IMG/VR virus record: IMGVR_UViG_2541047916_000003
Direction: 5' to 3' (one strand)
DNA from: a virus
Lineage: Duplodnaviria > Heunggongvirae > Uroviricota > Caudoviricetes
DNA: 44,153 bases
Position 1 is the first letter of the stretch. Every line of letters begins with the position of its first letter. The notes beneath the pieces are model-generated. The model did not search any database. It was given only the letters and a program-made list of their open reading frames with translations, and had not been told where the DNA came from. Shown one piece after another: positions 7,506 through 43,572 of the stretch. A program made the translations under genes and the position numbers.

Positions 7506-7638
7506 TTTTTGGGACTCCTGGCTGATTAAGTATGTCGATAAGGCGTTTCCATCCGTCACGTAATTTACGGGTGATTCGTTCAAGTAAAGATTCGGAAGGG
7601 CAGCCAGCAACAGGCCACCCTGCAATGGCATATTGCAT
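7474..7638 (-). CDS. cIII: CIII (FtsH inhibitor, stabilises CII)
   Basis: Hand translation [54 protein letters not shown] matches lambda CIII; 54 aa, below the track threshold. Confidence 0.85.
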   Translation of the reverse strand: MQYAIAGWPVAGCPSESLLERITRKLRDGWKRLIDILNQPGVPKNGSNNYGYPD

Positions 7639-7710
7639 GGTGTGCTCCTTATTTATACATAACGAAAAACGCCTCGAGTGAAGCGTAATTGGTATGCGGT
7701 AACGCCGCGC

Positions 7711-8261: not shown

Positions 8262-8462
8262 TCAGGCAGCTTTGTTGTTCTGTTTACCAAGTTCTCTGGC
8301 AATCATTGCCGTCGTTCGTATTGCCCATTTATCGACATATTTCCCATCTTCCATTACAGGAAACATTTCTTCAGGCTTAACCATGCATTCCGATTGCAGC
8401 TTGCATCCATTGCATCGTTTGAATTGTCCACACCATTGATTTGTATCAATAGTCGTAGTCAT
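8262..8462 (-). CDS. ral: Ral restriction-alleviation protein
   Basis: 66-aa translation matches lambda Ral as recalled (MTTTIDTNQWCGQFKRCNGCKLQSECMVKPEEMFPVMEDGKYVDKW...). Confidence 0.85.
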   Translation of the reverse strand: MTTTIDTNQWCGQFKRCNGCKLQSECMVKPEEMFPVMEDGKYVDKWAIRTTAMIARELGKQNNKAA

Positions 8463-9982: not shown

Positions 9983-10735
9983 TTATGCTGCAAGTCTCTT
10001 AACCCAAGTCTCTCTTTTGGAGAATGGTAGAACTTGGCTTGATTCATGGAAGAGTAAGGAGAGTTGTTGCATTTGATCACCAATTGCTTCGCTGTCTATA
10101 ACAACAAATCTGTTGTTATACTCCTCACTTGAAGCTTTAAGATCAATTAGTTTCCCAAGCAATGAGTAAGCACTATTCCAGCTTCCTCCGTGTTTCACGC
10201 TTGATGTAAAAACGTATTTAGGTATGTCGGTTTTTATTGTTACAGGGACGGTAATTTGATGTCCACTCAAGCCATATACGTTTTCACGAAGAGAAAGTGC
10301 GTCTCTAAGCTCTGTGTGATATAGATAATCAATAACCATACTTTCAAACTTTTCAGCTTGAACTGGCTGATACCAGTCTAACGACAAAGTTGATGCGAGT
10401 ATACCAGCTCTAATTATGTTCGATGTAATCGCACCGACATCCTTTTCTGTTGCCCAAGCAATGATTTCTCCTCGAGCATTGAGTTCTGCGCCTTCTTTAA
10501 GCAGTAATTGTCGTATCTCATCAAGTCGTTTTTTGGTAAGCGAGATCCCTCTTGCCTCCATATTCATTAAGGCATCGCATCTGTCACTAACTAAATACCT
10601 ACCATTGACTTCACGGATAAAGGCACCGACATGCTCTCCATCATCACAGTAAGTGAATGGACTGATAATTCTCAAGGTCTTGCCTATTGGATGGCATTCG
10701 AAACCTAGTTGTGAGATCACTGTTGAGCACATCAT
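9983..10735 (-). CDS. uncharacterized protein (250 aa), distal gene of a two-gene cassette in the rexAB position
   Basis: ORF on the cI strand; start ATGATG overlaps the stop of the upstream 185-aa gene; AT-rich; no family recognised. Confidence 0.7.
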   Translation of the reverse strand: MMCSTVISQLGFECHPIGKTLRIISPFTYCDDGEHVGAFIREVNGRYLVSDRCDALMNMEARGISLTKKRLDEIRQLLLKEGAELNARGEIIAWATEKDVGAITSNIIRAGILASTLSLDWYQPVQAEKFESMVIDYLYHTELRDALSLRENVYGLSGHQITVPVTIKTDIPKYVFTSSVKHGGSWNSAYSLLGKLIDLKASSEEYNNRFVVIDSEAIGDQMQQLSLLFHESSQVLPFSKRETWVKRLAA

Positions 10736-11289
10736 ATTCCAAACCCCATTTGCCCCGACTCATCTTCAAGCGGTAAAGGTATTCTCCCAGAGTAAGTTAT
10801 GTTCAGATGTTTACAGAAGTAATTCCAATACCCTACCAGGTCATCTGGGTTTATGTCATCTTCGATTGGAAACGCTATTCTATCACTATAGTATCCAGCT
10901 TCTTCATAGTATACATGGTAGTGAGCACCGTAAATGATATCTTGGTACTTCGGATGATCGACCTTGTAACTATTCGTGTGTTTGTCAAAGTGATAGGTAT
11001 CTACCGCGAAAACCCTCTTGTTATGATAGAAAGCAATAATATTTATTTTAGGGTAAGAAATCGGGTCATCAGGTTCTGAATCCTGATCTGGTTTCCATTT
11101 CAGTTCAAACTTTAGCCCTTGTATAGGTATACAATCCTCATCCAAGGGGATGATATGGGCTTGTAGCCACATATCAGAGCGACTTGGTTTCTGTTTCCAT
11201 TTAACGCCAGAAAAGTTAACTATTTTTTTACAATAAAGTACTTTATCAACTTCTACTTGGCTTGGCTGATAATCATCTATTTTTGCCAA
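10732..11289 (-). CDS. uncharacterized acidic, aromatic-rich protein (185 aa), proximal gene of the rex-position cassette
   Basis: ORF begins about 40 nt downstream of the cI stop on the same strand; Tyr/Trp/His- and Asp/Glu-rich; no TM segment; no family recognised. Confidence 0.7.
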   Translation of the reverse strand: MAKIDDYQPSQVEVDKVLYCKKIVNFSGVKWKQKPSRSDMWLQAHIIPLDEDCIPIQGLKFELKWKPDQDSEPDDPISYPKINIIAFYHNKRVFAVDTYHFDKHTNSYKVDHPKYQDIIYGAHYHVYYEEAGYYSDRIAFPIEDDINPDDLVGYWNYFCKHLNITYSGRIPLPLEDESGQMGFGI

Positions 11290-11995: not shown

Positions 11996-12069
11996 TTATT
12001 ACGCTCTGTACTGGAACCATCCATGCACAATGTGTATTTTTACTTGTATTCGCAAAGTACATATTGTAT
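11996..12069. promoter_or_regulatory. OR operator region with divergent pRM and pR
   Basis: pR candidate TTGTAT-(17)-TATTTT with operator-like AAAGTACATATTGTATT in the spacer; a second related copy AGTACAGAGCGTAAT lies next to the cI start. Confidence 0.45.
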
Positions 12070-12099
12070 TTTTTTATTCGTGTTTACTATGGAGGGCAT

Positions 12100-12315
12100 A
12101 TGAGCAACCTACGAAAATATCGAGAGTCACTGAATATCTCTCAAACAACACTTGCTAAGGCAGTTGGATGCACACAGGGAGCTATCGGACATTGGGAATC
12201 TGGTCGTCGCTTCCCAGACCTTAAAACATGCCGTGCTCTTGTTGCGTGCCTAAACAAGTTAGGCGCAAAAGTCAGTCTTGATGACGTGTTCCCGCCGGAA
12301 CACAAAGCCGCTTAA
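12100..12315 (+). CDS. cro: Cro-type repressor (XRE-family HTH)
   Basis: 71-aa product from ATG at 12100 with GGAGGG ribosome-binding site; recognition helix TQGAIGHW parallels TQGGIGHW in cI. Confidence 0.8.
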   Translation: MSNLRKYRESLNISQTTLAKAVGCTQGAIGHWESGRRFPDLKTCRALVACLNKLGAKVSLDDVFPPEHKAA

Positions 12316-12325
12316 TAAGCGGATC

Positions 12326-12353
12326 CGCTCTTTGTAACAACGGACATTCGTCC
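12326..12353 (+). promoter_or_regulatory. nutR candidate (boxA-like CGCTCTTTGTAACAACG plus short hairpin)
   Basis: Directly after the cro stop; hairpin GGAC-ATTC-GTCC follows the conserved AACAACG; a second GAAA-loop hairpin lies at about 12358-12371. Confidence 0.45.
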
Positions 12354-12456
12354 TACGTCGCTGAAAAGCGAGTTCCAAGATATCTGACCAACTAAGGCCA
12401 TATGCGTTTCCACGCATACCTTTCAACTAACTATTCACTATTGGAAATCTTAAGAA

Positions 12457-12753
12457 ATGGAAAGAACAAGTTACAGCAAACTATCACAGCGTGACGTTGA
12501 TCGCGCAGAAACAGATTTACTTATCAATCTGTCAGCTATTACCCAGCGCGGTCTGGCAAAGATGATTGGCTGTCATGAATCGAAGATAAGCAGAACGGAC
12601 TGGAGATTTATTGCTTCGGTCTTGTGTGCTTTCGGAATGGCATCAGACATCAGTCCGATTAGCAGGGCTTTTAAGTATGCGCTTGATGGACTCACCAATA
12701 AAAAACGCCCGGCGGCAACCGAGCGTTCTGAACAAATCCAGATGGAATTCTGA
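12457..12753 (+). CDS. cII: CII transcriptional activator (heterologous N-terminus, lambda-type C-terminus)
   Basis: 98-aa ORF ending ..TNKKRPAATERSEQIQMEF as lambda CII; N-terminal DNA-binding part differs from lambda. Confidence 0.85.
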   Translation: MERTSYSKLSQRDVDRAETDLLINLSAITQRGLAKMIGCHESKISRTDWRFIASVLCAFGMASDISPISRAFKYALDGLTNKKRPAATERSEQIQMEF

Positions 12754-12772
12754 GGTCATTACTGGATCAATC
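12697..12772 (-). ncRNA. oop: oop antisense RNA
   Basis: Minus-strand sequence across the cII 3' end closely matches lambda oop as recalled and ends in the hairpin GCCGCCGGGCG plus TTTTTTATT. Confidence 0.6.
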
Positions 12773-12785
12773 CACAGGAGTCATT

Positions 12786-13685
12786 ATGACAAATACAGCA
12801 AAAATACTCAACTTCTGCAGAGGTAACTTTGCCAAACAGGAGCGTAATGTGGCAGATCTCGATGATGGTTACGCCAGACTATCAAATATGCTGCTTGAGG
12901 CTTATTCAGGCGCAGATCTGACCAAGCGACAGTTTAAAGTGCTGCTTGCCATTCTGCGTAAAACCTATGGATGGAATAAACCAATGGACAGAATCACCGA
13001 TTCTCAACTTAGCGAGATTACAAAGTTACCCGTCAAACGGTGCAATGAAGCCAAGTTAGAACTCGTCAGAATGAATATTATCAAGCAGCAAGGCGGCATG
13101 TTTGGACCAAATAAAAACATCTCAGAATGGTGTATCCCTCAAAACGAGGGAAAATCCCCTAAAACGAGGGATAAAACATCCCTCAAATTGGGGGATTGCT
13201 ATCCCTCAAAACAGGGGGACACAAAAGACACTATTACAAAAGAAAAAAGAAAAGATTATTCGTCAGAGAATTCTGGCGAATCCTCTGACCAGCCAGAAAA
13301 CGACCTTTCTGTGGTGAAACCGGATGCTGCAATTCAGAGCGGCAGCAAGTGGGGGACAGCAGAAGACCTGACCGCCGCAGAATGGATGTTTGACATGGTG
13401 AAGACCATCGCGCCATCAGCCAGAAAACCGAATTTTGCAGGGTGGGCTAACGATATCCGCCTGATGCGTGAACGTGACGGACGTAACCATCGCGACATGT
13501 GTGTACTGTTCCGCTGGGCATGCCAGGACAACTTCTGGTCCGGTAACGTGCTGAGCCCGGCCAAACTCCGCGACAAGTGGACCCAGCTCGAAATCAACCG
13601 TAACAAGCAACAGGCAGGTGTGACAGCCTGCAAACCAAAACTCGACCTGACAAACACTGACTGGATTTACGGGGTGGATTTATGA
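12786..13685 (+). CDS. O: replication initiator O
   Basis: 299-aa translation matches lambda O as recalled; ori iterons lie within the gene. Confidence 0.95.
   Translation: MTNTAKILNFCRGNFAKQERNVADLDDGYARLSNMLLEAYSGADLTKRQFKVLLAILRKTYGWNKPMDRITDSQLSEITKLPVKRCNEAKLELVRMNIIKQQGGMFGPNKNISEWCIPQNEGKSPKTRDKTSLKLGDCYPSKQGDTKDTITKEKRKDYSSENSGESSDQPENDLSVVKPDAAIQSGSKWGTAEDLTAAEWMFDMVKTIAPSARKPNFAGWANDIRLMRERDGRNHRDMCVLFRWACQDNFWSGNVLSPAKLRDKWTQLEINRNKQQAGVTACKPKLDLTNTDWIYGVDL
13134..13219 (+). repeat. ori-lambda-type iterons (four ~18-19 bp repeats) followed by an AT-rich segment
   Basis: ATCCCTCAAAACGAGGGA-like unit repeated four times, then an A-rich tract to about 13260. Confidence 0.8.
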
Positions 13686-14383
13686 AAAACATCGCCGCAC
13701 AGATGGTTAATTTTGACCGTGAGCAGATGCGTCGGATCGCCAACAACATGCCGGAACAGTACGACGAAAAGCCGCAGGTACAGCAGGTAGCGCAGATCAT
13801 CAACGGTGTGTTCAGCCAGTTACTGGCAACTTTCCCGGCGAGTCTGGCTAACCGTGACCAGAACGAACTGAACGAAATCCGCCGCCAGTGGGTTCTGGCT
13901 TTCCGGGAAAACGGGATCACCACAATGGAACAGGTTAACGCAGGAATGCGCGTAGCCCGTCGGCAGAATCGACCATTTCTGCCATCACCCGGGCAGTTTG
14001 TTGCATGGTGCCGGGAAGAAGCATCCGTTATCGCCGGACTGCCAAACGTCAGCGAGCTGGTTGATATGGTTTACGAGTATTGCCGGAAGCGAGGCCTGTA
14101 TCCGGATGCAGAGTCTTATCCGTGGAAATCGAACGCGCACTACTGGCTGGTTACCAACCTGTACCAGAACATGCGGGCCAATGCGCTGACTGACGCGGAA
14201 TTACGACGCAAGGCTGCCGATGAACTGACCTGTATGACAGCGCGAATTAACCGTGGTGAGACGATACCTGAACCAGTAAAACAACTTCCTGTCATGGGCG
14301 GCAGACCTCTAAATCGTGTTCAGGCGCTGGCGAAGATCGCAGAAATTAAAGCTAAGTTAGGACTGAAAGGAGCAAGTGTATGA
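13682..14383 (+). CDS. P: replication protein P (DnaB helicase loader)
   Basis: 233-aa translation matches lambda P as recalled; start overlaps O stop. Confidence 0.95.
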   Translation: MKNIAAQMVNFDREQMRRIANNMPEQYDEKPQVQQVAQIINGVFSQLLATFPASLANRDQNELNEIRRQWVLAFRENGITTMEQVNAGMRVARRQNRPFLPSPGQFVAWCREEASVIAGLPNVSELVDMVYEYCRKRGLYPDAESYPWKSNAHYWLVTNLYQNMRANALTDAELRRKAADELTCMTARINRGETIPEPVKQLPVMGGRPLNRVQALAKIAEIKAKLGLKGASV

Positions 14384-14670
14384 CGGGCAAAGAGGCAATT
14401 ATTCATTACCTGGGGACGCATAATAGCTTCTGTGCGCCGGACGTTGCCGCGCTAACAGGCGCAACAGTAACCAGCATAAATCAGGCCGCGGCTAAAATGG
14501 CACGGGCAGGTCTTCTGGTTATCGAAGGTAAGGTCTGGCGAACGGTGTATTACCGGTTTGCTACCAAGGAAGAACGGGAAGGAAAGATGAGCACGAACCT
14601 GATTTTTAAGGAGTGTCGCCAGAGTGCCACGATGAAACGGATATTGGCGGTATATGGAGTTAAAAGATGA
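14380..14670 (+). CDS. ren: Ren
   Basis: 96-aa translation matches lambda Ren as recalled; start overlaps P stop. Confidence 0.85.
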   Translation: MTGKEAIIHYLGTHNSFCAPDVAALTGATVTSINQAAAKMARAGLLVIEGKVWRTVYYRFATKEEREGKMSTNLIFKECRQSATMKRILAVYGVKR

Positions 14671-14695
14671 CCATCTACATCACTGAGCTAATAAC

Positions 14696-14726
14696 AGGCC
14701 TGCAGGTAATCGCAGGCCTTTTTATT
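14696..14726 (+). terminator. rho-independent terminator (tR2 position)
   Basis: GGCCTGC-aggtaatc-GCAGGCC stem followed by TTTTTATTT between ren and ninB. Confidence 0.6.
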
Positions 14727-14743
14727 TGGGGGAGAGGGAAGTC

Positions 14744-15184
14744 ATGAAAAAACTAACCTTTGAAATTCGATCTCCGGCACATCAGCAAAACGCTATTCAC
14801 GCAGTACAGCAAATCCTTCCAGACCCAACCAAACCAATCGTAGTAACCATTCAGGAACGCAACCGCAGCTTAGACCAAAACAGGAAGCTATGGGCCTGCT
14901 TAGGTGACGTCTCTCGTCAGGTTGAATGGCATGGTCGCTGGCTGGATGCAGAAAGCTGGAAGTGTGTGTTTACCGCAGCATTAAAGCAGCAGGATGTTGT
15001 TCCTAACCTTGCCGGGAATGGCTTTGTGGTAATAGGCCAGTCAACCAGCAGGATGCGTGTAAGCGAATTTGCGGAGCTATTAGAGCTTATACAGGCATTC
15101 GGTACAGAGCGTGGCGTTAAGTGGTCAGACGAAGCGCGACTGGCTCTCGAATGGAAAGCGCGATGGGGAGATCGGGCTGCATGA
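14744..15184 (+). CDS. ninB: NinB (Orf recombination mediator)
   Basis: 146-aa product from ATG at 14744 (MKKLTFEIRSPAHQQNAIHAV...) with GGAGAGGGAAG upstream; matches lambda NinB as recalled. Confidence 0.85.
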   Translation: MKKLTFEIRSPAHQQNAIHAVQQILPDPTKPIVVTIQERNRSLDQNRKLWACLGDVSRQVEWHGRWLDAESWKCVFTAALKQQDVVPNLAGNGFVVIGQSTSRMRVSEFAELLELIQAFGTERGVKWSDEARLALEWKARWGDRAA

Positions 15185-15708
15185 CTATCAAATCAAATAC
15201 GCCAGCACACGACAAGGACTGCTGGCAAACGCCGCTTTGGCTTTTTGATGCACTGGATATTGAGTTTGGATTCTGGCTGGATTCGGCAGCGAGCGACAAA
15301 AATGCTCTGTGCGCTCACTGGCTAACTGAGGACGACGACGCGCTCAATTCTGAGTGGGTAAGCCACGGTGCAATCTGGAATAACCCACCGTACAGCAATA
15401 TCAGGCCGTGGGTGGAAAAAGCCGCTGAGCAGTGTATACAACAGCGACAGACGGTAGTGATGCTTGTGCCAGAGGATATGTCTGTCGGATGGTTCAGCAA
15501 GGCTCTGGAGAGTGTTGACGAAGTTCGTATTATCACTGATGGACGGATTAATTTTATCGAACCATCGACAGGGCTGGAGAAGAAGGGAAACAGCAAAGGC
15601 TCCATGCTGCTGATTTGGCGACCGTTCATCAGTCCTCGACGGATGTTTACTACCGTATCCAAAGCGGCATTGATGGCGATCGGGCAGGGCGTCAGGAGGG
15701 CTGCATGA
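15181..15708 (+). CDS. phage DNA N6-adenine methyltransferase (Dam family)
   Basis: 175-aa product with NPPY catalytic motif (IWNNPPYSN); ATGA overlap with ninB stop; occupies the lambda ninC position. Confidence 0.75.
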
Positions 15709-15881
15709 GACGACAGCGACGAAGCATCACCGACATAATCTGCGAAAACTGCAAATACCTTCCAACGAAACGCTCCAGAAATAAACGCAAGCTAATCCCA
15801 AAAGAATCTGACGTAAAAACCTTCAATTACACAGCCCACCTGTGGGATATCCGGTGGCTAAGATATCGTGCGAGGAAATGA
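15705..15881 (+). CDS. ninE: NinE
   Basis: 58-aa product [27 protein letters not shown].. resembles lambda NinE as recalled; ATGA overlap with the methyltransferase stop. Confidence 0.7.
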
Positions 15882-15883
15882 CA

Positions 15884-16225
15884 ATGGATTATTCACAGTT
15901 AAGTGATTTTGAAATTAACAGAATGGTAGGAGACATAATTTTTAAAGGCCTTTGGGCAAGTAAACCGGAAACATCAGGGAATAACACCAACAAATGGTAT
16001 TACGGAAATGCTGATACAACTTTTGAGCCATTAAATCATTTGCCTGACTACTGCAATGATCCGAGCGCTTCATGGCCGATTATTGAGAAATACAGGATTT
16101 CTATCTTAGACCAGTTAACTGAATGGTGTGTGGATGCAAAAGGCGTAAGCCCAATATTTGATACCAGACCTCTCCGCGCCGCCATGATTGTCTTTCTCCT
16201 GATGCAGGAGGCCAATAATGCTTAG
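15884..16225 (+). CDS. hypothetical nin-region protein (113 aa)
   Basis: ORF following ninE; GAGGAA ribosome-binding site about 6 nt upstream of the second ATG. Confidence 0.5.
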
Positions 16226-16412
16226 CCCATCTCAATCCCTTCAATACCTGAAAGAAAGCATAGAGCGGGCTTCAATGTGCACAGAGTGGATTCTATCTAG
16301 GTTTAGCGCATACAGAAGATTGCCGGTAAAGGGCATGCCAAGCAAGTCGATGCTGCATATGCAAAAGAATGCGCGCTGGAAGGTATGGCGAGAACACAGG
16401 TTATGTGGCTGA
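16218..16412 (+). CDS. NinF-like small protein
   Basis: 64-aa ORF; N-terminus [10 protein letters not shown] resembles lambda NinF as recalled, the remainder diverges. Confidence 0.4.
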
Positions 16413-16431
16413 AAGAGGGGGTTATTAAGGC

Positions 16432-16794
16432 GTGAATACCTACAGCATCACATTACCCTGGCCTCCGAGCAATAATCGCTATTACCGCCATAATCGCGGG
16501 CGCACGCACGTCAGCGCAGAGGGGCAGGCATACCGCGATAACGTCGCCCGAATCATTAAAAACGCAATGCTGGATATCGGCCTGGCTATGCCTGTGAAAA
16601 TCCGCATTGAGTGCCACATGCCGGATCGCCGTCGCCGTGACCTGGATAATCTGCAAAAAGCCGCTTTTGACGCACTCACTAAAGCAGGTTTCTGGCTGGA
16701 TGATGCTCAGGTCGTTGATTACCGCGTTGTGAAGATGCCTGTTACCAAAGGTGGGAGGCTGGAACTGACCATCACCGAAATGGGGAATGAATGA
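16432..16794 (+). CDS. rusA: RusA Holliday-junction resolvase
   Basis: 120-aa translation matches E. coli DLP12 RusA as recalled ([23 protein letters not shown]...). Confidence 0.9.
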
Positions 16795-16931
16795 TGTTTG
16801 AGTTTAATATGGCAGAACTTCTTCGCCACCGCTGGGGGCGTCTGCGCTTATATCGTTTCCTCGGTTCTGTTTTGACCGATTACCGAATACTGAAGAATTA
16901 CGCCAAAACCCTGACAGGAACAGGAGTATGA
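16791..16931 (+). CDS. ylcG: YlcG-like small protein (46 aa)
   Basis: Hand-found [49 protein letters not shown]; ATGA overlap with rusA stop; below the track threshold. Confidence 0.6.
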
Positions 16932-17016
16932 AGTCAGAGATAACAATCAACTAATACTGTTTTGTTGATTTTTGCTTGTAATTGGCGTTCTGGTCTGATT
17001 TTTGTGGAGTAAGTTG

Positions 17017-17400
17017 ATGCGTGATATTCAGATGGTTCTTGAGCGTTGGGGTGCGTGGGCGGCTAATAATCATGAAGATGTGACCTGGTCGTCCATTGCC
17101 GCCGGTTTTAAGGGATTAATTCCTTCAAAAGTAAAATCTCGCCCGCAATGTTGTGACGATGACGCGATGATCATTTGCGGGTGCATGGCCCGTCTGAAAA
17201 AGAACAACAGCGATTTACACGATTTATTAGTAGATTATTATGTATGTGGTATGACATTCATGTCACTGGCAAGTAAGCATTGCTGCTCGGATGGTTATAT
17301 CGGGAAAAGGTTACAGAAGGCTGAGGGCATAATTGAAGGGATGTTAATGGCATTAGATATCCGGTTAGATATGGATATCGTTGCTAATAATTCTAATTGA
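17017..17400 (+). CDS. Q: Q late-gene antiterminator (DLP12 QuuD-like, non-lambda)
   Basis: 127-aa product from ATG at 17017 resembles DLP12 QuuD as recalled; Cys-rich zinc-binding region [12 protein letters not shown]. Confidence 0.8.
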
Positions 17401-17421
17401 TATGCAATTGTTTACTAAAAG

Positions 17422-17451
17422 TTATTAAAAATGGGGCGTGGAAACGCCCCC
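17422..17451 (-). terminator. minus-strand hairpin plus U-tract downstream of the porin gene
   Basis: GGGGCGT-ttcc-ACGCCCC followed by ATTTTTAAT on the minus strand. Confidence 0.4.
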
Positions 17452-17537
17452 AAAATAAAGGGTAATATATAACAGAAGGTTTATATAGTAAGAAGCAAGG
17501 TAGTGCTTCTAAAGGAAGTGGCTTGAGGGCTCCACTT

Positions 17538-17577
17538 ATATGTTGCGGAGGCAAAGCCTCCCGCAACATATCTTTTT
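17538..17577 (+). terminator. strong plus-strand terminator downstream of Q (tR'-like candidate)
   Basis: About 15-bp stem ATATGTTGCGGAGGC-aaa-GCCTCCCGCAACATAT followed by CTTTTT. Confidence 0.5.
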
Positions 17578-17588
17578 CGTAAGTCAGA

Positions 17589-18671
17589 TTAGAACTGATA
17601 AACCAGACCTACAGCGACGATGTCGTCGGTATCAATACCAGCTGTTTTGGTAAACTTACTATCGTCAATTAAGTTGATTTTGTAATCAACAAAAGTGGAC
17701 ATGTTTTTATTAAAGTAGTAAGTAGCACCGACATCGACATACTTGACTAAGTCTCGGTCACCATGAACACCAAGGTCTTTACCTTTTGACTGAAGGTAAG
17801 CAACAGATGGACGCAGACCGAAGTCAAACTGATATTGTGCTACTGCTTCAAAGTTTTGTGCTTTGTTTGCAATATGGTTATTACCAAAAACGGTCATATT
17901 CTGAGTTTCAGAATATGTGGTAGCCAGATAGATATTGTTCGCATCATATTTCAGGCCTGCAGCCCATACTTCCGCATTTTTGCCGGAGGCATTGAATTTG
18001 CTCTTACCATAGGCGACCTGACCGTCAGTGCGATCTGATTTAGCATAGGTTGCACCCACGCCGAATCCTTCATACTCATAAGTAGTGGAGAAACCGAAAC
18101 CATCACCATTGGCTTCAGTTACGTCAGTGCGGTCATTTTTACCCTGATACTGAGCAGCAAAGTTCAGGCCATCGACCAGACCAAAGAAGTCGTTGTTACG
18201 ATAAGTTGCAACACCAGTAGTGCGACCAGTCATGAACACATCTGTTTGGGTCCAGGTATCACCACCGAATTCTGGCAGAACGTCAGTCCACGCACCGATG
18301 TCGTATGCTACACCGTAGTTACGGCCGTAATCGATTGAGCCGTAATCACCAAATTTCAGGCCTGCAAATGCAAGACGGGTTTTGTCTTTGGAAGAACCTT
18401 GAGATTCAGCACGGTTGCCTTTGAATTCATATTCCCACTGACCGAAACCAGTCAGTTGATCGTTGATTTGGGTTTCACCTTTGAAGCCAAGACGGGCATA
18501 AGTAGTATCACCATCATCTGCATCATTAGAGGAGAAGTAGTGCTTGGCATTAACTTTCCCGTATAGATCCAGCTTGTTACTGTCTTTATTATAAATTTCA
18601 GCTGCCTGAGCAGACATCGCCATCAGTACTGATGCAGCTACAGCAGAAATTGCCACTGTTAATTTTTTCAT
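17589..18671 (-). CDS. nmpC: outer-membrane porin (NmpC/Lc/OmpC family) moron
   Basis: Signal peptide [23 protein letters not shown]; ends in ..VGLVYQF beta-barrel terminal motif; uninterrupted; between Q and the lysis genes as in DLP12/PA-2. Confidence 0.9.
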
Positions 18672-19096
18672 TGTACGCCCTTTTTTTGAACTATTATTAA
18701 AAAATGATGTCACTGCGCGATAAATATTCATCTAATCAATGTGATTATTTCAAGATGTAAGTTTTAGTTTCTCATTTAATTTGTGAAGTAGATCTCTATT
18801 TTTATCTGAACCTTTTCTATCTAATCCTATTCATGGCTCTTGTCTGAACAAAAATAAATCTATTAGCTAATTTATATTAATGGCACTTATTTATAAGTGC
18901 TCTATAATTCTTTAGCTTAATTTAAACAAACTAAAAATAACATCGGAAATTATTAACTGGTTATTTGTTGAAGTTTTCTTATGCATTTGTGGTGGTGTTT
19001 TGAACACTCGGTGGCATTCTCACAAATATCATTTAGTAGTTTACGTACGTAAAAAATTGGTTATGCTGTTAAGAGTGGTTACTTCGTCACACAGCT

Positions 19097-20461: not shown

Positions 20462-20755
20462 TTATTGTGAGCAATACACACGCGCTTCCAGCGGAGTATA
20501 AATGCCTAAAGTAATAAAACCGAGCAATCCATTTACGAATGTTTGCTGGGTTTCTGTTTTAACAACATTTTCTGCACCACCACAAATTTTTGCTGCATCG
20601 ACAGTTTTCTTCTGCCCAATTCCCGAAACGAAGAAATGATGGGTGATGGTTTCCTTTGGTGTTACTGCTGTAGGTTTGTTTCCAACAGTAAACGTCTGTT
20701 GAGCACATCCTGTAATAAGCATTGCCAGAGCGGCAGAAAACAACATTTTTTTCAT
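20462..20755 (-). CDS. bor: Bor serum-resistance lipoprotein
   Basis: 97-aa product from ATG at 20755 (MKKMLFSAALAMLITGCAQQTF...) matches lambda Bor as recalled; lipobox ITGC. Confidence 0.9.
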   Translation of the reverse strand: MKKMLFSAALAMLITGCAQQTFTVGNKPTAVTPKETITHHFFVSGIGQKKTVDAAKICGGAENVVKTETQQTFVNGLLGFITLGIYTPLEARVYCSQ

Positions 20756-21235
20756 CTTATTATCCTGCATTGTTAAAAACGGCAGAATCCTATGTGACAA
20801 CAATTAAACGATAGTTAAATGGATTGATGAAAATTAAAACTACACAGGTGGGCTCAGACTATTGGAGGAAGTTGGGGACACTCAGAATCCTGTGGAATGA
20901 AATAAACCGGTCTATCCGTCCATTACCCTTTTAGCTGCGCTGTATCGTCGCCGTATTCCCGCATTAACCATGACCGTAGCCCGACGGGGAATTCCTTCTG
21001 CGTGAGTGTGCGGGAATAATTAAAAACGATGCACACCGGGTTTTTACCGCGTTAATGATTCGCGGGTTTATCCCGGTGCGATGGTGGAAGAAACAGGAAG
21101 CTGTATTACAGAAAGTGCTACTACTGTATCCCGATGCGATGTATGTAATGTGAGTCAGATAATGGCACAGGATGTGGTGATGTGGCAGTCTGGAACACAG
21201 GATATATTGTCAGAATAAGACCCGTAGGAATAAAA

Positions 21236-21562
21236 ATGAAAAGACGCCTTTTACTACTTTTTCTGTTATCTGTCCTGGCAGTGGGATGCTCGCAGCAAAA
21301 AGCTGATGAGCCCCGGCAATTAGTGACGGTGTATCCACGATATCCGGAATATGCTGCAGCAAATTATATCAAGGGGCTGGTTGAGGTTAAGTTCGATATT
21401 GGTGCTGATGGGACTGTGACACGGATCGTTTTTCTCCGCTCAGAGCCTCATAATTTGTTTCGTGATGAAGTGGTGAAGGCCATGGCGAAATGGCGATTTG
21501 AAAAGAATCGCCCCTGTCAGGGAGTGAAGAGACAATTTATCTTTACGCCGTCACGTCCTTGA
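21236..21562 (+). CDS. lipoprotein with TonB-C-like domain
   Basis: Signal peptide plus lipobox (LAVGCSQ); YPRYPEYAAANYIKGLVEVKFDIGADGTV fits the TonB C-terminal pattern. Confidence 0.65.
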   Translation: MKRRLLLLFLLSVLAVGCSQQKADEPRQLVTVYPRYPEYAAANYIKGLVEVKFDIGADGTVTRIVFLRSEPHNLFRDEVVKAMAKWRFEKNRPCQGVKRQFIFTPSRP

Positions 21563-37970: not shown

Positions 37971-40900
37971 ATGGGTAAAGGCAGCAGTAAGGGGCATACC
38001 CCGCGCGAAGCGAAGGACAACCTGAAATCATCCCAGATGCTGAGCGTGATAGACGCCATCAGCGAAGGGCCGGTTGAAGGTCCGGTGGATGGATTAAAAA
38101 GCGTGCTGCTGAACAGTACGCCGGTGCTGGACAGTGAGGGGAATACCAATATATTCGGCGTCACGGTGGTGTTCCGGGCCGGTGAGCAGGAGCAGACACC
38201 GCCGGAGGGATTTGAATCCTCCGGCTCCGAGACGGTGCTCGGTACAGAAGTGAAATATGACACGCCGATCACCCGGACCATCACGTCGGCAAACATTGAC
38301 CGTCTGCGTTTTACTTTCGGCGTGCAGGCACTGGTGGAAACCACCTCAAAGGGGGACAGGAATCCATCGGAAGTCCGCCTGCTGGTTCAGATTCAACGTA
38401 ACGGTGGCTGGGTGACGGAAAAAGACATCACCATTAAGGGCAAAACCACGTCGCAGTATCTGGCCTCGGTGGTGGTGGATAACCTGCCGCCGCGCCCGTT
38501 TAATATCCGGATGCGCAGGATGACGCCGGACAGCACCACAGACCAGTTGCAGAACAAAACGCTCTGGTCGTCATACACCGAAATCATCGATGTGAAACAG
38601 TGCTACCCGAACACGGCACTGGTCGGCGTACAGGTGGACTCGGAGCAGTTCGGCAGCCAGCAGGTGAGCCGTAATTATCATCTTCGCGGGCGCATTCTGC
38701 AGGTGCCGTCGAACTATAACCCGCAGACGCGGCAATACAGCGGTATCTGGGACGGAACGTTTAAGCCAGCATACAGCAACAACATGGCCTGGTGTCTGTG
38801 GGATATGCTGACCCATCCGCGCTACGGCATGGGGAAACGTCTTGGTGCGGCAGATGTGGATAAATGGGCGCTGTATGTCATCGGCCAGAATTGCGACCAG
38901 TCAGTGCCGGACGGCTTTGGCGGCACGGAGCCGCGCATCACCTGTAATGCGTACCTGACCACACAGCGCAAGGCGTGGGATGTGCTCAGTGATTTTTGCT
39001 CGGCGATGCGCTGTATGCCGGTATGGAACGGGCAGACGCTGACATTCGTGCAGGACCGACCGTCGGATAAGGTGTGGACCTATAACCGCAGTAATGTGGT
39101 GATGCCGGATGATGGCGCGCCGTTCCGCTACAGCTTCAGCGCCCTGAAAGACCGCCATAATGCCGTTGAGGTGAACTGGATTGACCCGGATAACGGCTGG
39201 GAGACGGCGACAGAGCTTGTGGAGGACACGCAGGCCATTGCCCGTTACGGTCGTAACGTCACGAAGATGGATGCCTTTGGCTGTACCAGCCGGGGGCAGG
39301 CACACCGCGCCGGGCTGTGGCTGATTAAAACGGAGCTGCTGGAAACGCAGACCGTGGACTTCAGCGTGGGTGCAGAAGGGCTTCGCCATGTACCGGGCGA
39401 TGTCATTGAAATCTGTGATGATGACTATGCGGGGATCAGCATCGGCGGGCGCGTGCTGGCGGTGAACAACCAGACGCGGACACTGACGCTCGACCGTGAA
39501 ATCACGCTGCCATCCTCCGGCACCACGCTGATAAGCCTGGCTGACGGACAGGGGAATCCGGTCAGCGTGGAGGTCCAGTCCGTCACCGACGGCGTGAAGG
39601 TAAAAGTGAGCCGTGTTCCTGACGGCGTTGCAGAATACAGCGTGTGGGGGCTGAAGTTGCCAACGTTGCGCCAGCGCCTGTTCCGCTGTGTGAGTATCCG
39701 TGAGAACGATGACGGCACGTATGCCATCACTGCCGTGCAGCATGTACCGGAAAAAGAGGCCATCGTGGATAACGGGGCGCACTTTGACGGCGACCAGAGC
39801 GGCACGGTGAATGGTGTCACGCCGCCAGCGGTGCAGCACCTGACTGCCGAAGTCACCGCAGACAGCGGGGAATATCAGGTGCTGGCGCGCTGGGACACGC
39901 CGAAGGTGGTGAAGGGGGTGAGCTTTATGCTTCGCCTGACCGTGGCAGCGGATGACGGCAGTGAGCGGCTGGTCAGCACGGCCCGGACGACGGAAACCAC
40001 ATACCGCTTCAGGCAACTGGCGCTGGGGAACTACAGGCTGACAGTCCGGGCGGTAAATGCGTGGGGGCAGCAGGGCGATCCGGCATCGGTATCGTTCCGG
40101 ATTGCCGCACCGGCAGCGCCGTCGCAGATTGAGCTGACACCGGGGTATTTTCAGATAACCGCCACGCCGCATCTTGCGGTTTATGATCCGACGGTACAGT
40201 TTGAGTTCTGGTTCTCGGAAAAGCGGATTGCGGATATCAGGCAGGTTGAAACCACAGCACGCTATCTTGGCACGGCGCTGTACTGGATAGCCGCCAGTAT
40301 CAATATCAAACCGGGCCATGATTATTATTTTTACATCCGCAGTGTGAACACCGTTGGCAAATCGGCATTTGTGGAGGCTGTTGGCCAGCCGAGTGATGAT
40401 GCATCCGGCTATCTGAATTTTTTCAAAGGAGAGATAGGGAAAACCCATCTGGCTCAGGAGTTGTGGACGCAGATTGATAACGGTCAGCTTGCGCCTGACC
40501 TGGCTGAAATCAGGACGTCCATTACGGATGTCAGCAATGAAATCACGCAGACCGTCAATAAGAAACTGGAAGACCAGAGTGCAGCGATCCAGCAGATACA
40601 GAAGGTTCAGGTTGATACAAATAATAACCTGAACAGCATGTGGGCTGTGAAGCTGCAGCAGATGCAGGACGGACGCCTTTATATCGCGGGTATTGGTGCC
40701 GGTATTGAGAATACTCCTGACGGTATGCAGAGTCAGGTGCTGCTGGCGGCGGACAGGATTGCGATGATGAATCCTGCGAATGGCAACACAAAGCCGATGT
40801 TTGTTGGGCAGGGCGATCAGATATTCATGAACGAAGTGTTCCTGAAATATCTGACGGCTCCCACCATTACCAGCGGTGGCAATCCCCCAACGTTTTCACT

Positions 40901-41453
40901 GACACCTGATGGTCGACTTTCTGCGAAAAATGCGGATATCAGCGGTAACGTGAACGCGAACTCCGGGACGCTCAACAACGTCACGATTAATCAGAACTGT
41001 CGGATTCTGGGAAAACTGTCAGCTAACCAGATTGAAGGTGATATTGTCAAAACGGTGGGAAAAGCCTTTCCGAGAAATGGCAGTTATGCCAGCGGTACAA
41101 TAACGGTCACTGTGTACGATGACCAGGCTTTTGACCGTCAGATAGTAGTCCCCCCCGTTCTGTTTCGTGGGGGTAAGCATGAAAACTTCAACAGCAACAA
41201 CCAACAGTCATACTGGTATTCAACCTGTAAGCTGCAGGTACTGAAGAACGGACAGGAAATCTTTCAGCAACCCGCGACGGATGTCAGCAGGGTATTTTCA
41301 TCAGTCATTGATATGCCTGCCGGACACGGCCATGTCACCCTGACTTTCAATGTTTCTTCATATGGTGCTAATAACTGGACGCCAACGACCAGTATCAGCG
41401 ACCTTCTTGTTGTTGTGATGAAGAAATCTACAGCCGGTATCAGTATCAGTTGA
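37971..41453 (+). CDS. J: central tail fibre / host-specificity protein J
   Basis: 1160-aa ORF in the lambda gpJ position (lambda J is slightly shorter); GAGGA ribosome-binding site. Confidence 0.9.
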
Positions 41454-41511: not shown

Positions 41512-43572
41512 ATGGCAGTACAGATTTCAGGCGTGCTGAAAGACGGTGCAGGAAAACCGATACAGAACTGCACCATTCAGCTCAAAGCAAAACGTAACAG
41601 CACCACGGTTGTGGTGAACACGGTGGCCTCAGAAAATCCGGATGAAGCCGGACGTTACAGCATGGATGTCGAGTATGGCCAGTACAGCGTTATCCTGCTG
41701 GTTGAAGGTTTTCCGCCTTCACATGCCGGGGCCATCACCGTGTATGAGGATTCTAAGCCGGGGACATTGAATGATTTTCTGGGCGCTGCAACAGAAGATG
41801 ATGTTCGTCCGGAGGCACTGTATCGTTTTGAAAAGATGGTGGAAGAGGTGGCACGCAACGCTGAAGCCGCCTCTCAGAGCGCAGCGGCAGCAAAGAAATC
41901 AGAAACAGCAGCGGCATCGTCCAGGAATGCGGCGAAAACATCAGAGACGAATGCAGGTAACAGCGCGAAAGCGGCAGCTTCTTCAAAAACAGCCGCACAA
42001 AACGCAGCAACAGCGGCAGAACGTTCAGAGACAAATGCCCGTGCGTCAGAAGAAGCCTCCGCAGACAGTGAAGAGGCTTCCCGCCGTAATGCAGAGTCAG
42101 CCGCTGAAAATGCCGGAGTCGCCACCACAAAAGCGCGGGAGGCCGCAGCAGACGCAACAAAGGCCGGGCAGAAAAAGGATGAGGCTCTGTCGGCAGCGAC
42201 ACGGGCTGAAAAGGCGGCAGACCGCGCAGAAGTCGCAGCGGAAGTGACTGCAGAGCCCTATGCGAATATAGTGCCGCCGCTGCCTGATGTGTGGATACCG
42301 TTTAACGATTCACTGGATATGATTGCGGGTTTTTCTCCGGGCTATAAAAAAATAGCTATTGGTGACGATGTGGTTCAGGTCGCCAGTGATAAACAGGTTA
42401 ATTTCAGTCGCGCATCAACGGCAACATATATCAACAAATCTGGCGAACTGAAAACGGCGGAAATTAATGAGCCGCGATTTGAGTGTGATGGCCTGCTTAT
42501 TGAGGGACAAAGAACGAACTACATGCTCAATTCGGAAAGTCCAGCCAGCTGGGGGAAGTCATCAAACATGGATGTGCCCGAAACCGGGACAGATAGTTTT
42601 GGTTTTACTTATGGAAAGTTTGTCTGCAACGATTCTCTGGTTGGGCAAACTTCGGCTATTAATATGGCATCAATTGCTGCAACAAAGTCAGTTGATGTCT
42701 CAGGCGATAACAAGTACGTGACAACCTCATGCCGTTTTAAAACAGAACGACAGGTAAGGTTACGTATACGGTTTGATAAGTATGATGGTAGTGCAACAAC
42801 TTTTCTTGGCGATGCGTACATTGATACGCAAACGCTTGAAATTAATATGACAGGTGGGGCTGCCGGCAGAATTACGGCACGAGTCAGGAAGGATAAGACC
42901 ACAGGCTGGATTTTTGCAGAGGCAACGATTCAGGCAATTGATGGTGAGTTAAAAATAGGCTCTCAGATACAGTATTCTCCTGAGCGGGGTGGGGCAACAG
43001 TATCTGGTGACTATATTTATCTTGCCACCCCACAAGTAGAGAATGGGCCGTGTGTATCATCATTTATTATTTCAGGAGGCAGCGCAACGACAAGAGCCAG
43101 TGATTTGGTTAGTATCCCCACCAGAAATAATCTTTATAAGTTACCATTTACTTTTTTACTTGAGATTCATAAAAACTGGGATATTGCACCAAACGCCGCA
43201 CCCCGCGTGTGGGATATAGCAGCAGCCAATACCGGGCAATCAGCAATTGCAGCAATCAACAGAGGTAGTGGTAAGTTATATATGAGTCTGTCAAACCCTT
43301 CAGGCTTGTATGTTAATAGCGCAGCGACAGATGTATTTGCAGAGAAAACCACATTTGGATGTATTGCAAAAGCTGATGGTCACTTTCATGTGGTGACAAA
43401 TGGTAAAGCGGTTAATGAAGTTTATTGTGAATATAATGGTGTGACCGCTGATAAAAATATCCGATTTGGAGGGCAGACGAATACTGGAGAACGACATCTG
43501 TTTGGCCATATTCGCAATTTCCGCATATGGCATAAAGAATTAAATGACAGGCAATTAAAAGAGGTCGTATGA
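41512..43572 (+). CDS. stf: side tail fibre protein (lambda Stf-like N-terminus, Ala-rich shaft, heterologous LamG/ConA-like C-terminal domain)
   Basis: N-terminus MAVQISGVLKDGAGKPIQNCTIQLKAKRNSTTVVVNTV matches lambda Stf as recalled; C-terminal ~430 aa AT-rich and unrelated to lambda. Confidence 0.8.
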   Translation: MAVQISGVLKDGAGKPIQNCTIQLKAKRNSTTVVVNTVASENPDEAGRYSMDVEYGQYSVILLVEGFPPSHAGAITVYEDSKPGTLNDFLGAATEDDVRPEALYRFEKMVEEVARNAEAASQSAAAAKKSETAAASSRNAAKTSETNAGNSAKAAASSKTAAQNAATAAERSETNARASEEASADSEEASRRNAESAAENAGVATTKAREAAADATKAGQKKDEALSAATRAEKAADRAEVAAEVTAEPYANIVPPLPDVWIPFNDSLDMIAGFSPGYKKIAIGDDVVQVASDKQVNFSRASTATYINKSGELKTAEINEPRFECDGLLIEGQRTNYMLNSESPASWGKSSNMDVPETGTDSFGFTYGKFVCNDSLVGQTSAINMASIAATKSVDVSGDNKYVTTSCRFKTERQVRLRIRFDKYDGSATTFLGDAYIDTQTLEINMTGGAAGRITARVRKDKTTGWIFAEATIQAIDGELKIGSQIQYSPERGGATVSGDYIYLATPQVENGPCVSSFIISGGSATTRASDLVSIPTRNNLYKLPFTFLLEIHKNWDIAPNAAPRVWDIAAANTGQSAIAAINRGSGKLYMSLSNPSGLYVNSAATDVFAEKTTFGCIAKADGHFHVVTNGKAVNEVYCEYNGVTADKNIRFGGQTNTGERHLFGHIRNFRIWHKELNDRQLKEVV

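Follow-up and report, generated by a model that had tools for sequence, protein, structure and literature searches.

Between ninB and ninE of the lambdoid phage genome considered here lies a gene for a small adenine methyltransferase, and the question that this locus raises is which site the enzyme would modify and what a phage would gain from it when its natural E. coli hosts all carry Dam. The DNA analyzed, referred to below as the window, is a stretch of 44,153 nt from a tailed phage. The reading that we favor, at a probability of about 0.85, is that the gene encodes an active orphan AdoMet-dependent phage N-6-adenine-methyltransferase, which would act on GATC and, as part of the nin module, would top up the methylation of replicating phage DNA.

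As read from the sequence and the list of its open reading frames, the gene begins with an ATG at 15181-15183 and ends with a TGA at 15706-15708, giving 175 codons on the plus strand (Table 1). A preliminary description of this DNA, made from the letters only, had proposed a 175-residue NPPY protein at exactly this place, between ninB and ninE, and both proposals are borne out, the former by the sequence together with the PF05869 and TIGR01712 matches and the latter by the PF05772 and PF05322 matches of the neighboring products. Each of the two junctions is an ATGA overlap, in which the TGA of ninB (15182-15184) overlaps the ATG of the methyltransferase gene and the TGA of the latter overlaps the ATG of ninE (15705-15707). 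Translational coupling with the neighbors had also been claimed; the overlaps themselves are present in the sequence, and they suggest such coupling. A longer reading frame starting with GTG at 15121 (195 aa) was rejected as the gene, since the ATG is where both the profile matches and the homologues of 175 aa start, and an antisense frame at 15315-15662 (115 aa), for which no family match was found, was taken as spurious. In the stretch from the ribosome-binding sequence to the methyltransferase start codon there is one GATC (15170-15173).

Table 1. Features at and around the methyltransferase gene, in window coordinates.
Feature	Position	Strand	Basis
Intrinsic terminator, lambda tR2 position, ren to ninB	14696..14729	+	8-bp G+C-rich stem, 8-nt loop, TTTTTATTT
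ninB, orf-family recombination mediator, upstream gene	14744..15184	+	PF05772, E 1.1e-54
Shine-Dalgarno-like GGGGAG within the end of ninB, 10 nt 5′ of the ATG	15165..15170	+	Sequence; putative function
Left GGGCTGCATGA copy, 11 nt, ninB end / methyltransferase start	15174..15184	+	Also in lambda ninB/ninC junction
Methyltransferase CDS, 175 aa, PF05869 / TIGR01712	15181..15708	+	Profile matches, likeness to VT2-Sakai orf32, PV340572.1 annotation
LDSAAS, residues 33-38, AdoMet-binding motif-I-like, end of predicted strand 1	15277..15294	+	Conservation, model strand 31-36
NPPY, catalytic motif IV, residues 68-71	15382..15393	+	Codons AAC CCA CCG TAC
Conserved beta-hairpin region, residues 121-146 (G121, R122, F125, N137, G140, S141)	15541..15618	+	Conservation, model strands
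Right GGGCTGCATGA copy, 11 nt, methyltransferase end / ninE start	15698..15708	+	Sequence
ninE, downstream gene	15705..15881	+	PF05322, E 1.8e-41

The protein matches PF05869, "DNA N-6-adenine-methyltransferase (Dam)", over profile positions 1-167 of 169 (E 3.7e-65; 219.1 bits against a cutoff of 28.1), and the equivalog TIGR01712, "phage N-6-adenine-methyltransferase", over positions 1-165 of 165 (E 1.2e-79; 265.6 bits against a cutoff of 97.05), far above chance level, and it further matches phrog_111, "DNA methyltransferase", and the orphan-methyltransferase models of PADLOC. This family is large and curated, with thousands of members: an exhaustive search returned 8973 cluster representatives at E ≤ 0.001, and a protein search returned 1906 phage records. 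Conservation was assessed on an alignment of the protein with 84 diverse representatives, HP1 Dam and T1 Dam (n = 87; 33-75% identity, median 39%), in which all 32 positions conserved at ≥75% are kept in the protein, including T17-P18, D34, A36-A37, N68-P69-P70-Y71-S72, R122, F125, and N137. Among these 87 members the NPPY quartet is conserved at 98% (N), 97% (P), 99% (P), and 93% (Y), and within LDSAAS, a segment that would bind AdoMet, the values are 97% for D34, 92% for A37, and 80% for A36; a set of 52 closer homologues has 43 invariant columns. No inactivating substitution in a conserved motif, a check that the preliminary description had itself suggested, was found on alignment, and its assignment of the protein to the N6-adenine DNA methyltransferases, with the catalytic motif intact, agrees with both the family profiles and the conservation.

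A confident AlphaFold model, for which an alignment of 52 homologues served as input, consists of a single compact alpha/beta domain (mean pLDDT 89.8, pTM 0.87), and the protein has the Class I (Rossmann-type) AdoMet methyltransferase fold, with NPPY directly after a predicted strand at residues 64-68. No separate target-recognition domain, including a winged-helix domain inserted in the core, was found in the predicted protein. The conserved hairpin region of residues 121-146, modeled as strands with a lower-confidence loop, is probably the element that reads GATC and stands in for the absent recognition domain. The solved structures nearest to the predicted fold are PCIF1, M.TaqI, and HsdM; a search of solved structures by sequence gave chance-level matches only (SdiA and a DHH protein, E 0.3-0.7), and no family member of solved structure was detectable in this way. 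Reading of GATC by an enzyme of 175 residues that has no recognition domain may follow a mode absent from solved structures, either via the hairpin or via a dimer.

The prediction that GATC is the target comes from relatives with reported activity. The protein is identical at 174 of 175 residues to the equally long product of orf32 of the Stx2 phage VT2-Sakai, the sole difference being D51 here and A51 there, at a position that is not conserved. This orf32 is the only annotated methyltransferase of the VT2-Sakai genome, and for this reason we take it to be M.EcoVT2Dam. In 2001 Radlinska and Bujnicki reportedly cloned M.EcoVT2Dam and showed that it methylates GATC, and the later literature cites it as targeting GATC. 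HP1 Dam and T1 Dam, which are 36 and 33% identical to the protein and align with it across all motifs, are likewise cited as Dam-like or GATC enzymes. M.Phi93DAM of the lactococcal phage phi93 is a further family member, 31% identical to the protein, the phi93 gene being 100% identical in DNA to the PhiM.16 gene that the protein search matched at 31%, and for this enzyme GATC methylation has been reported by SMRT sequencing and DpnI/DpnII digestion, together with protection against DpnII. Because members at 31% to 99% identity have all been reported to be GATC-specific, methylation of the GATC adenine is a safe prediction for the present protein, with activity attributed to this exact sequence by likeness.

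It would be tempting to see in this shared specificity a kinship with the Dam of the host, as the term "Dam-type" in the preliminary description implied. However, no match to PF02086 (D12 class) was obtained even at E ≤ 10, PF05869 being the only Pfam match, and identity over the aligned core is 11% to E. coli Dam and 8% to T4 Dam. The group of E. coli and T4 Dam has been described as carrying an inserted winged-helix domain, and the methyltransferase domains of PCIF1 and the DIRS1 retrotransposon have been placed in a different group, that of M.EcoKI/M.TaqI (Iyer et al.; PMC4738411); a paper on DIRS retrotransposons also surfaced in a full-text literature search for "PF05869." The protein is a functional analogue of Dam and, beyond the methyltransferase fold, not its homologue, and the GATC specificity common to both is best read as convergence. 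"Dam-type" is hence apt for the function and misleading for the descent, which corrects the idea of kinship with E. coli Dam. The prophage "Dam homolog" of the ST131 methylome paper was considered as well and set aside as a PF02086 protein, of the other family.

The position of the gene can be defined to the nucleotide by alignment with lambda. Window 12691-15184, a block that runs from cII to the final nucleotide of the ninB TGA, shares 97.3% identity with lambda 38591-41084. Identity is back at window 15712, corresponding to lambda 42097 and 7 nt into ninE, and from the eighth nucleotide of ninE on the match to the lambda gene is 94.6%. In lambda both ninC and ninD lie between ninB and ninE, and the methyltransferase gene is a clean module swap for the two, exact at the gene boundaries. 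The earlier statement that the gene stands where lambda has ninC is confirmed by the alignment and yet incomplete, for ninD has been replaced too. Both ends of the gene carry GGGCTGCATGA, and the lambda junctions ninB/ninC (41074-41084) and ninC/ninD (41945-41953) likewise end in GCTGCATGA; the junction sequence GGGCTGCATGA may be a conserved linker that aids coupled translation and may also offer short homology for the exchange of modules. A C-terminal Ala occurs in 82 of 100 close homologues and Ala-Ala in 57 of 100, while the preceding residues vary. A degradation tag of the ClpXP type was considered for this Ala-Ala and set aside, since the ATGA overlap forces a last codon ending in A, and the pattern, explained at the DNA level by the common GCTGCATGA junction, is read as a junction or linker constraint. 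The genome as a whole is a mosaic, in which the cII-O-P-ren-ninB block (12691-15184) is 97.3% lambda and the packaging, head, and tail region (20000-44153) is 99.6% phage 21, and downstream of ninE the order of genes is ninX, rusA, ylcG, Q, and porin.

The slot also bears on when the gene would be expressed. In lambda, the nin genes are delayed-early, and transcripts from pR reach them only under antitermination by N at the terminator that precedes ninB. Here this terminator is strong, with a hairpin at 14696-14719 (AGGCCTGCAGGTAATCGCAGGCCT) followed by TTTTTATTTGG, and a search for a promoter of the gene's own gave no more hits in 12000-17600 than shuffled sequence would (7 found against 8.0 expected). 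Because the methyltransferase gene sits in the pR operon behind a strong terminator, it is expected to be silent under cI repression and to depend on N. No restriction endonuclease partner was found adjacent to it, its flanks being NinB and NinE and the antisense frame being without a family, in agreement with the orphan status proposed earlier, and in PV340572.1, the nearest public phage record, the endonuclease annotations are limited to RusA, Red exonuclease, and lysis functions. The sequencing of lysogen or phage methylation that had been proposed as a check would be masked in a dam+ host, because host Dam methylates GATC regardless; methylome sequencing in such a host cannot reveal the activity of the enzyme.

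From these elements a plausible course of action can be drawn. The enzyme would be a minimal single Rossmann-type domain, with its motifs in the linear order of an N-terminal helix with WxTP, the D34 cofactor motif, NPPY, and the conserved hairpin. NPPY, after strand 4, would hold the flipped-out adenine, and the adenine of GATC would be converted to N6-methyladenine. Transcription would come from pR only once N antiterminates through the terminator upstream of ninB, so timed that the product is most likely a lytic-phase enzyme, raising the GATC methylation of fast-replicating phage DNA which limiting host Dam would leave under-methylated. A paper on phage L, whose discussion of Dam concerns the host enzyme only, states that host Dam leaves the virion DNA of lambda and P22 under-methylated. 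Fully methylated progeny DNA would resist methylation-sensitive restriction enzymes that cut GATC and, in the next host, would offer no substrate to MutH. The window holds 128 GATC sites (2.9 per kb), which are under-represented at an observed/expected ratio of 0.61; CTAG, as a separate observation, is strongly under-represented, with 7 sites and a ratio of 0.28. The biological role is the weakest step of this explanation. Protection against GATC-cutting enzymes may be marginal because all natural E. coli hosts carry Dam, and the enzyme is largely redundant in Dam-proficient E. coli, which fits a gene that is dispensable and freely exchanged; no study of a deletion phenotype for this gene in a lambdoid phage was found in the literature.

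This leads to the other purposes that an active GATC enzyme could have. Rapid methylation of both GATC strands in the course of lytic replication might blind the host MutHLS mismatch-repair system and thereby permit recombination of diverged lambdoid genomes, driven by NinB/Orf and RusA, in which case the real job of the enzyme would be other than anti-restriction; this, like the novel mode of GATC reading considered above, we hold to be improbable. The preliminary description had raised an altered host gene expression in the lysogen. On such a reading the methyltransferase would act as an epigenetic regulator, altering host or prophage expression at GATC sites left unmethylated by host Dam, or would aid the maintenance of lysogeny. 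The dam homologue of phage Phi24B was indeed recovered when lysogen cultures were screened for expressed genes, the authors of that work suggested that it may supplement host Dam, and the Phi24B paper refers to a report in which host Dam was essential for the maintenance of 933W lysogeny. Such expression is at odds with strict repression of pR, but spontaneously induced cells, which are always present in lysogen cultures, could explain the Phi24B signal, and in the present phage a strong terminator precedes the gene within the pR operon, the promoter hits (7 against 8.0) yield no convincing promoter of its own, and host Dam methylates the same GATC motif already. On these grounds an effect on host gene expression in the lysogen, or any other regulatory part there, appears unlikely.

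Doubts could further be directed at the substrate or at the integrity of the gene. The enzyme might act mainly on RNA, on single-stranded DNA, or on a motif other than GATC, as might be thought from the closeness of its fold to PCIF1, an mRNA cap adenosine methyltransferase, from the absence of a recognizable DNA-recognition domain, and from the precedent of another Stx-prophage "DNA adenine methyltransferase" that prefers 16S rRNA. The latter enzyme, however, is unrelated, with an MT-A70 domain, a DPPW motif, and a gene at another place in the prophage; the present protein has NPPY and no match to the MT-A70 profile, and neither a DPPW motif nor a partner subunit was found for it. Equating the gene with the prophage rRNA methyltransferase M.EcoPA8orf6770P (NAR 2023) was considered and rejected, that enzyme being the gp5 product near the other prophage end. 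With GATC DNA methylation reported for four family members at 31-99% identity to the protein, and with the D51/A51 difference from the VT2-Sakai protein falling on a non-conserved position, a different substrate or specificity is very unlikely. It is also very unlikely that the gene is a relic without activity, or that it supplies the modification side of a restriction-modification system. Prophage genes do decay frequently, and databases contain many truncated or fused copies of this gene, but the present copy is full length with all conserved positions intact and is matched at 100% nucleotide identity by many E. coli genomes and by several phage records, and it is flanked on both sides by nin genes, not nucleases, with only the familyless antisense frame across it.

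The gene is already known, being annotated in a phage record and in RefSeq, belonging to a curated family, and having an experimentally anchored relative. Escherichia phage PhiR57_1 (PV340572.1) matches the window at 99.9% identity, with 100% in the nin segment and 99.9% in the late region, a few mismatches as far as about 32 kb, and an indel after that, and this record annotates the gene as [quoted passage not shown]; a search of the literature on PhiR57_1 and related ECOR phages found nothing relevant. Of 5426 complete E. coli genomes, 1566 (about 29%) contain the 528-nt gene at ≥95% identity, in up to 5 copies per genome. Both Nissle 1917 and ATCC 11775, the type strain, carry it at 100% identity between ninB and ninE, and the RefSeq annotation of these two strains reads "phage N-6-adenine-methyltransferase."

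Several other features of the window deserve mention in their own right. Between cI and N, in the place of lambda rexA/rexB, lie two overlapping genes on the minus strand. The product of the first (9983-10732) matches DUF1828 (E 5e-8) and the PADLOC candidate defence protein PDC-M24B (7e-10), and that of the second (10732-11289) matches DUF6978 weakly, below the cutoff, and PDC-M24A (5e-4), so that the two may be a prophage-encoded anti-phage pair. The restriction alleviation gene ral (8262-8462, minus strand) is full length, with 66 aa from an upstream ATG; PV340572.1 annotates its last 40 aa only, a short form that matches positions 27-66 of Pfam Ral. A complete general porin gene (17589-18731; Porin_1, E 2e-151), on the minus strand just 3′ of Q and annotated as OmpD in the public record, is likely a lysogenic-conversion gene. 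Between the lysis and terminase genes, the small product of a plus-strand gene (21182-21562) carries a TonB C-terminal domain (E 1e-12), and bor (20462-20755, minus strand) is nearby. An Rfam scan of the whole window gave only the cIII RNA thermoregulator (RF01804, 88.5 bits; 7593-7651, minus strand), with nothing in or near the methyltransferase gene.

Comparison with known systems places the enzyme close to some phage methyltransferases and far from the classical Dam. Its nearest counterpart, VT2-Sakai orf32, likewise lies between ninB and ninE with matching overlaps, although VT2-Sakai is an Stx2 phage and the phage described here is a siphovirus of the lambda/phage-21 type without Shiga toxin genes. 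HP1 Dam, T1 Dam, and M.Phi93DAM are also small single-domain proteins, with the motifs TP, LD..A, NPPYS, and R..F as in the present protein, T1 Dam differing in that it is extended at the N terminus and has an insertion ahead of the hairpin. Their genes are found in other contexts: that of HP1 Dam at the end of the early operon, that of T1 Dam in the replication region, and that of M.Phi93DAM between the terminase genes of 936-type phages. In contrast, PCIF1 (CAPAM), M.TaqI, and the type I HsdM, the nearest folds at 9-18% identity, exceed the present protein two- to threefold in size and possess additional recognition domains or subunits, and the substrate of PCIF1 is capped mRNA. E. coli Dam and T4 Dam, of the D12 class (PF02086), belong to a different family, than whose members the present protein is about 100 residues shorter. 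Finally, lambda ninC and ninD occupy the same slot, with ATGA-type junctions and the GCTGCATGA boundary sequence in common, whereas the slot DNA of the two phages is without similarity and both lambda proteins, of which NinC is annotated as phosphoadenosine-phosphosulfate-reductase-like, are unrelated to the methyltransferase.
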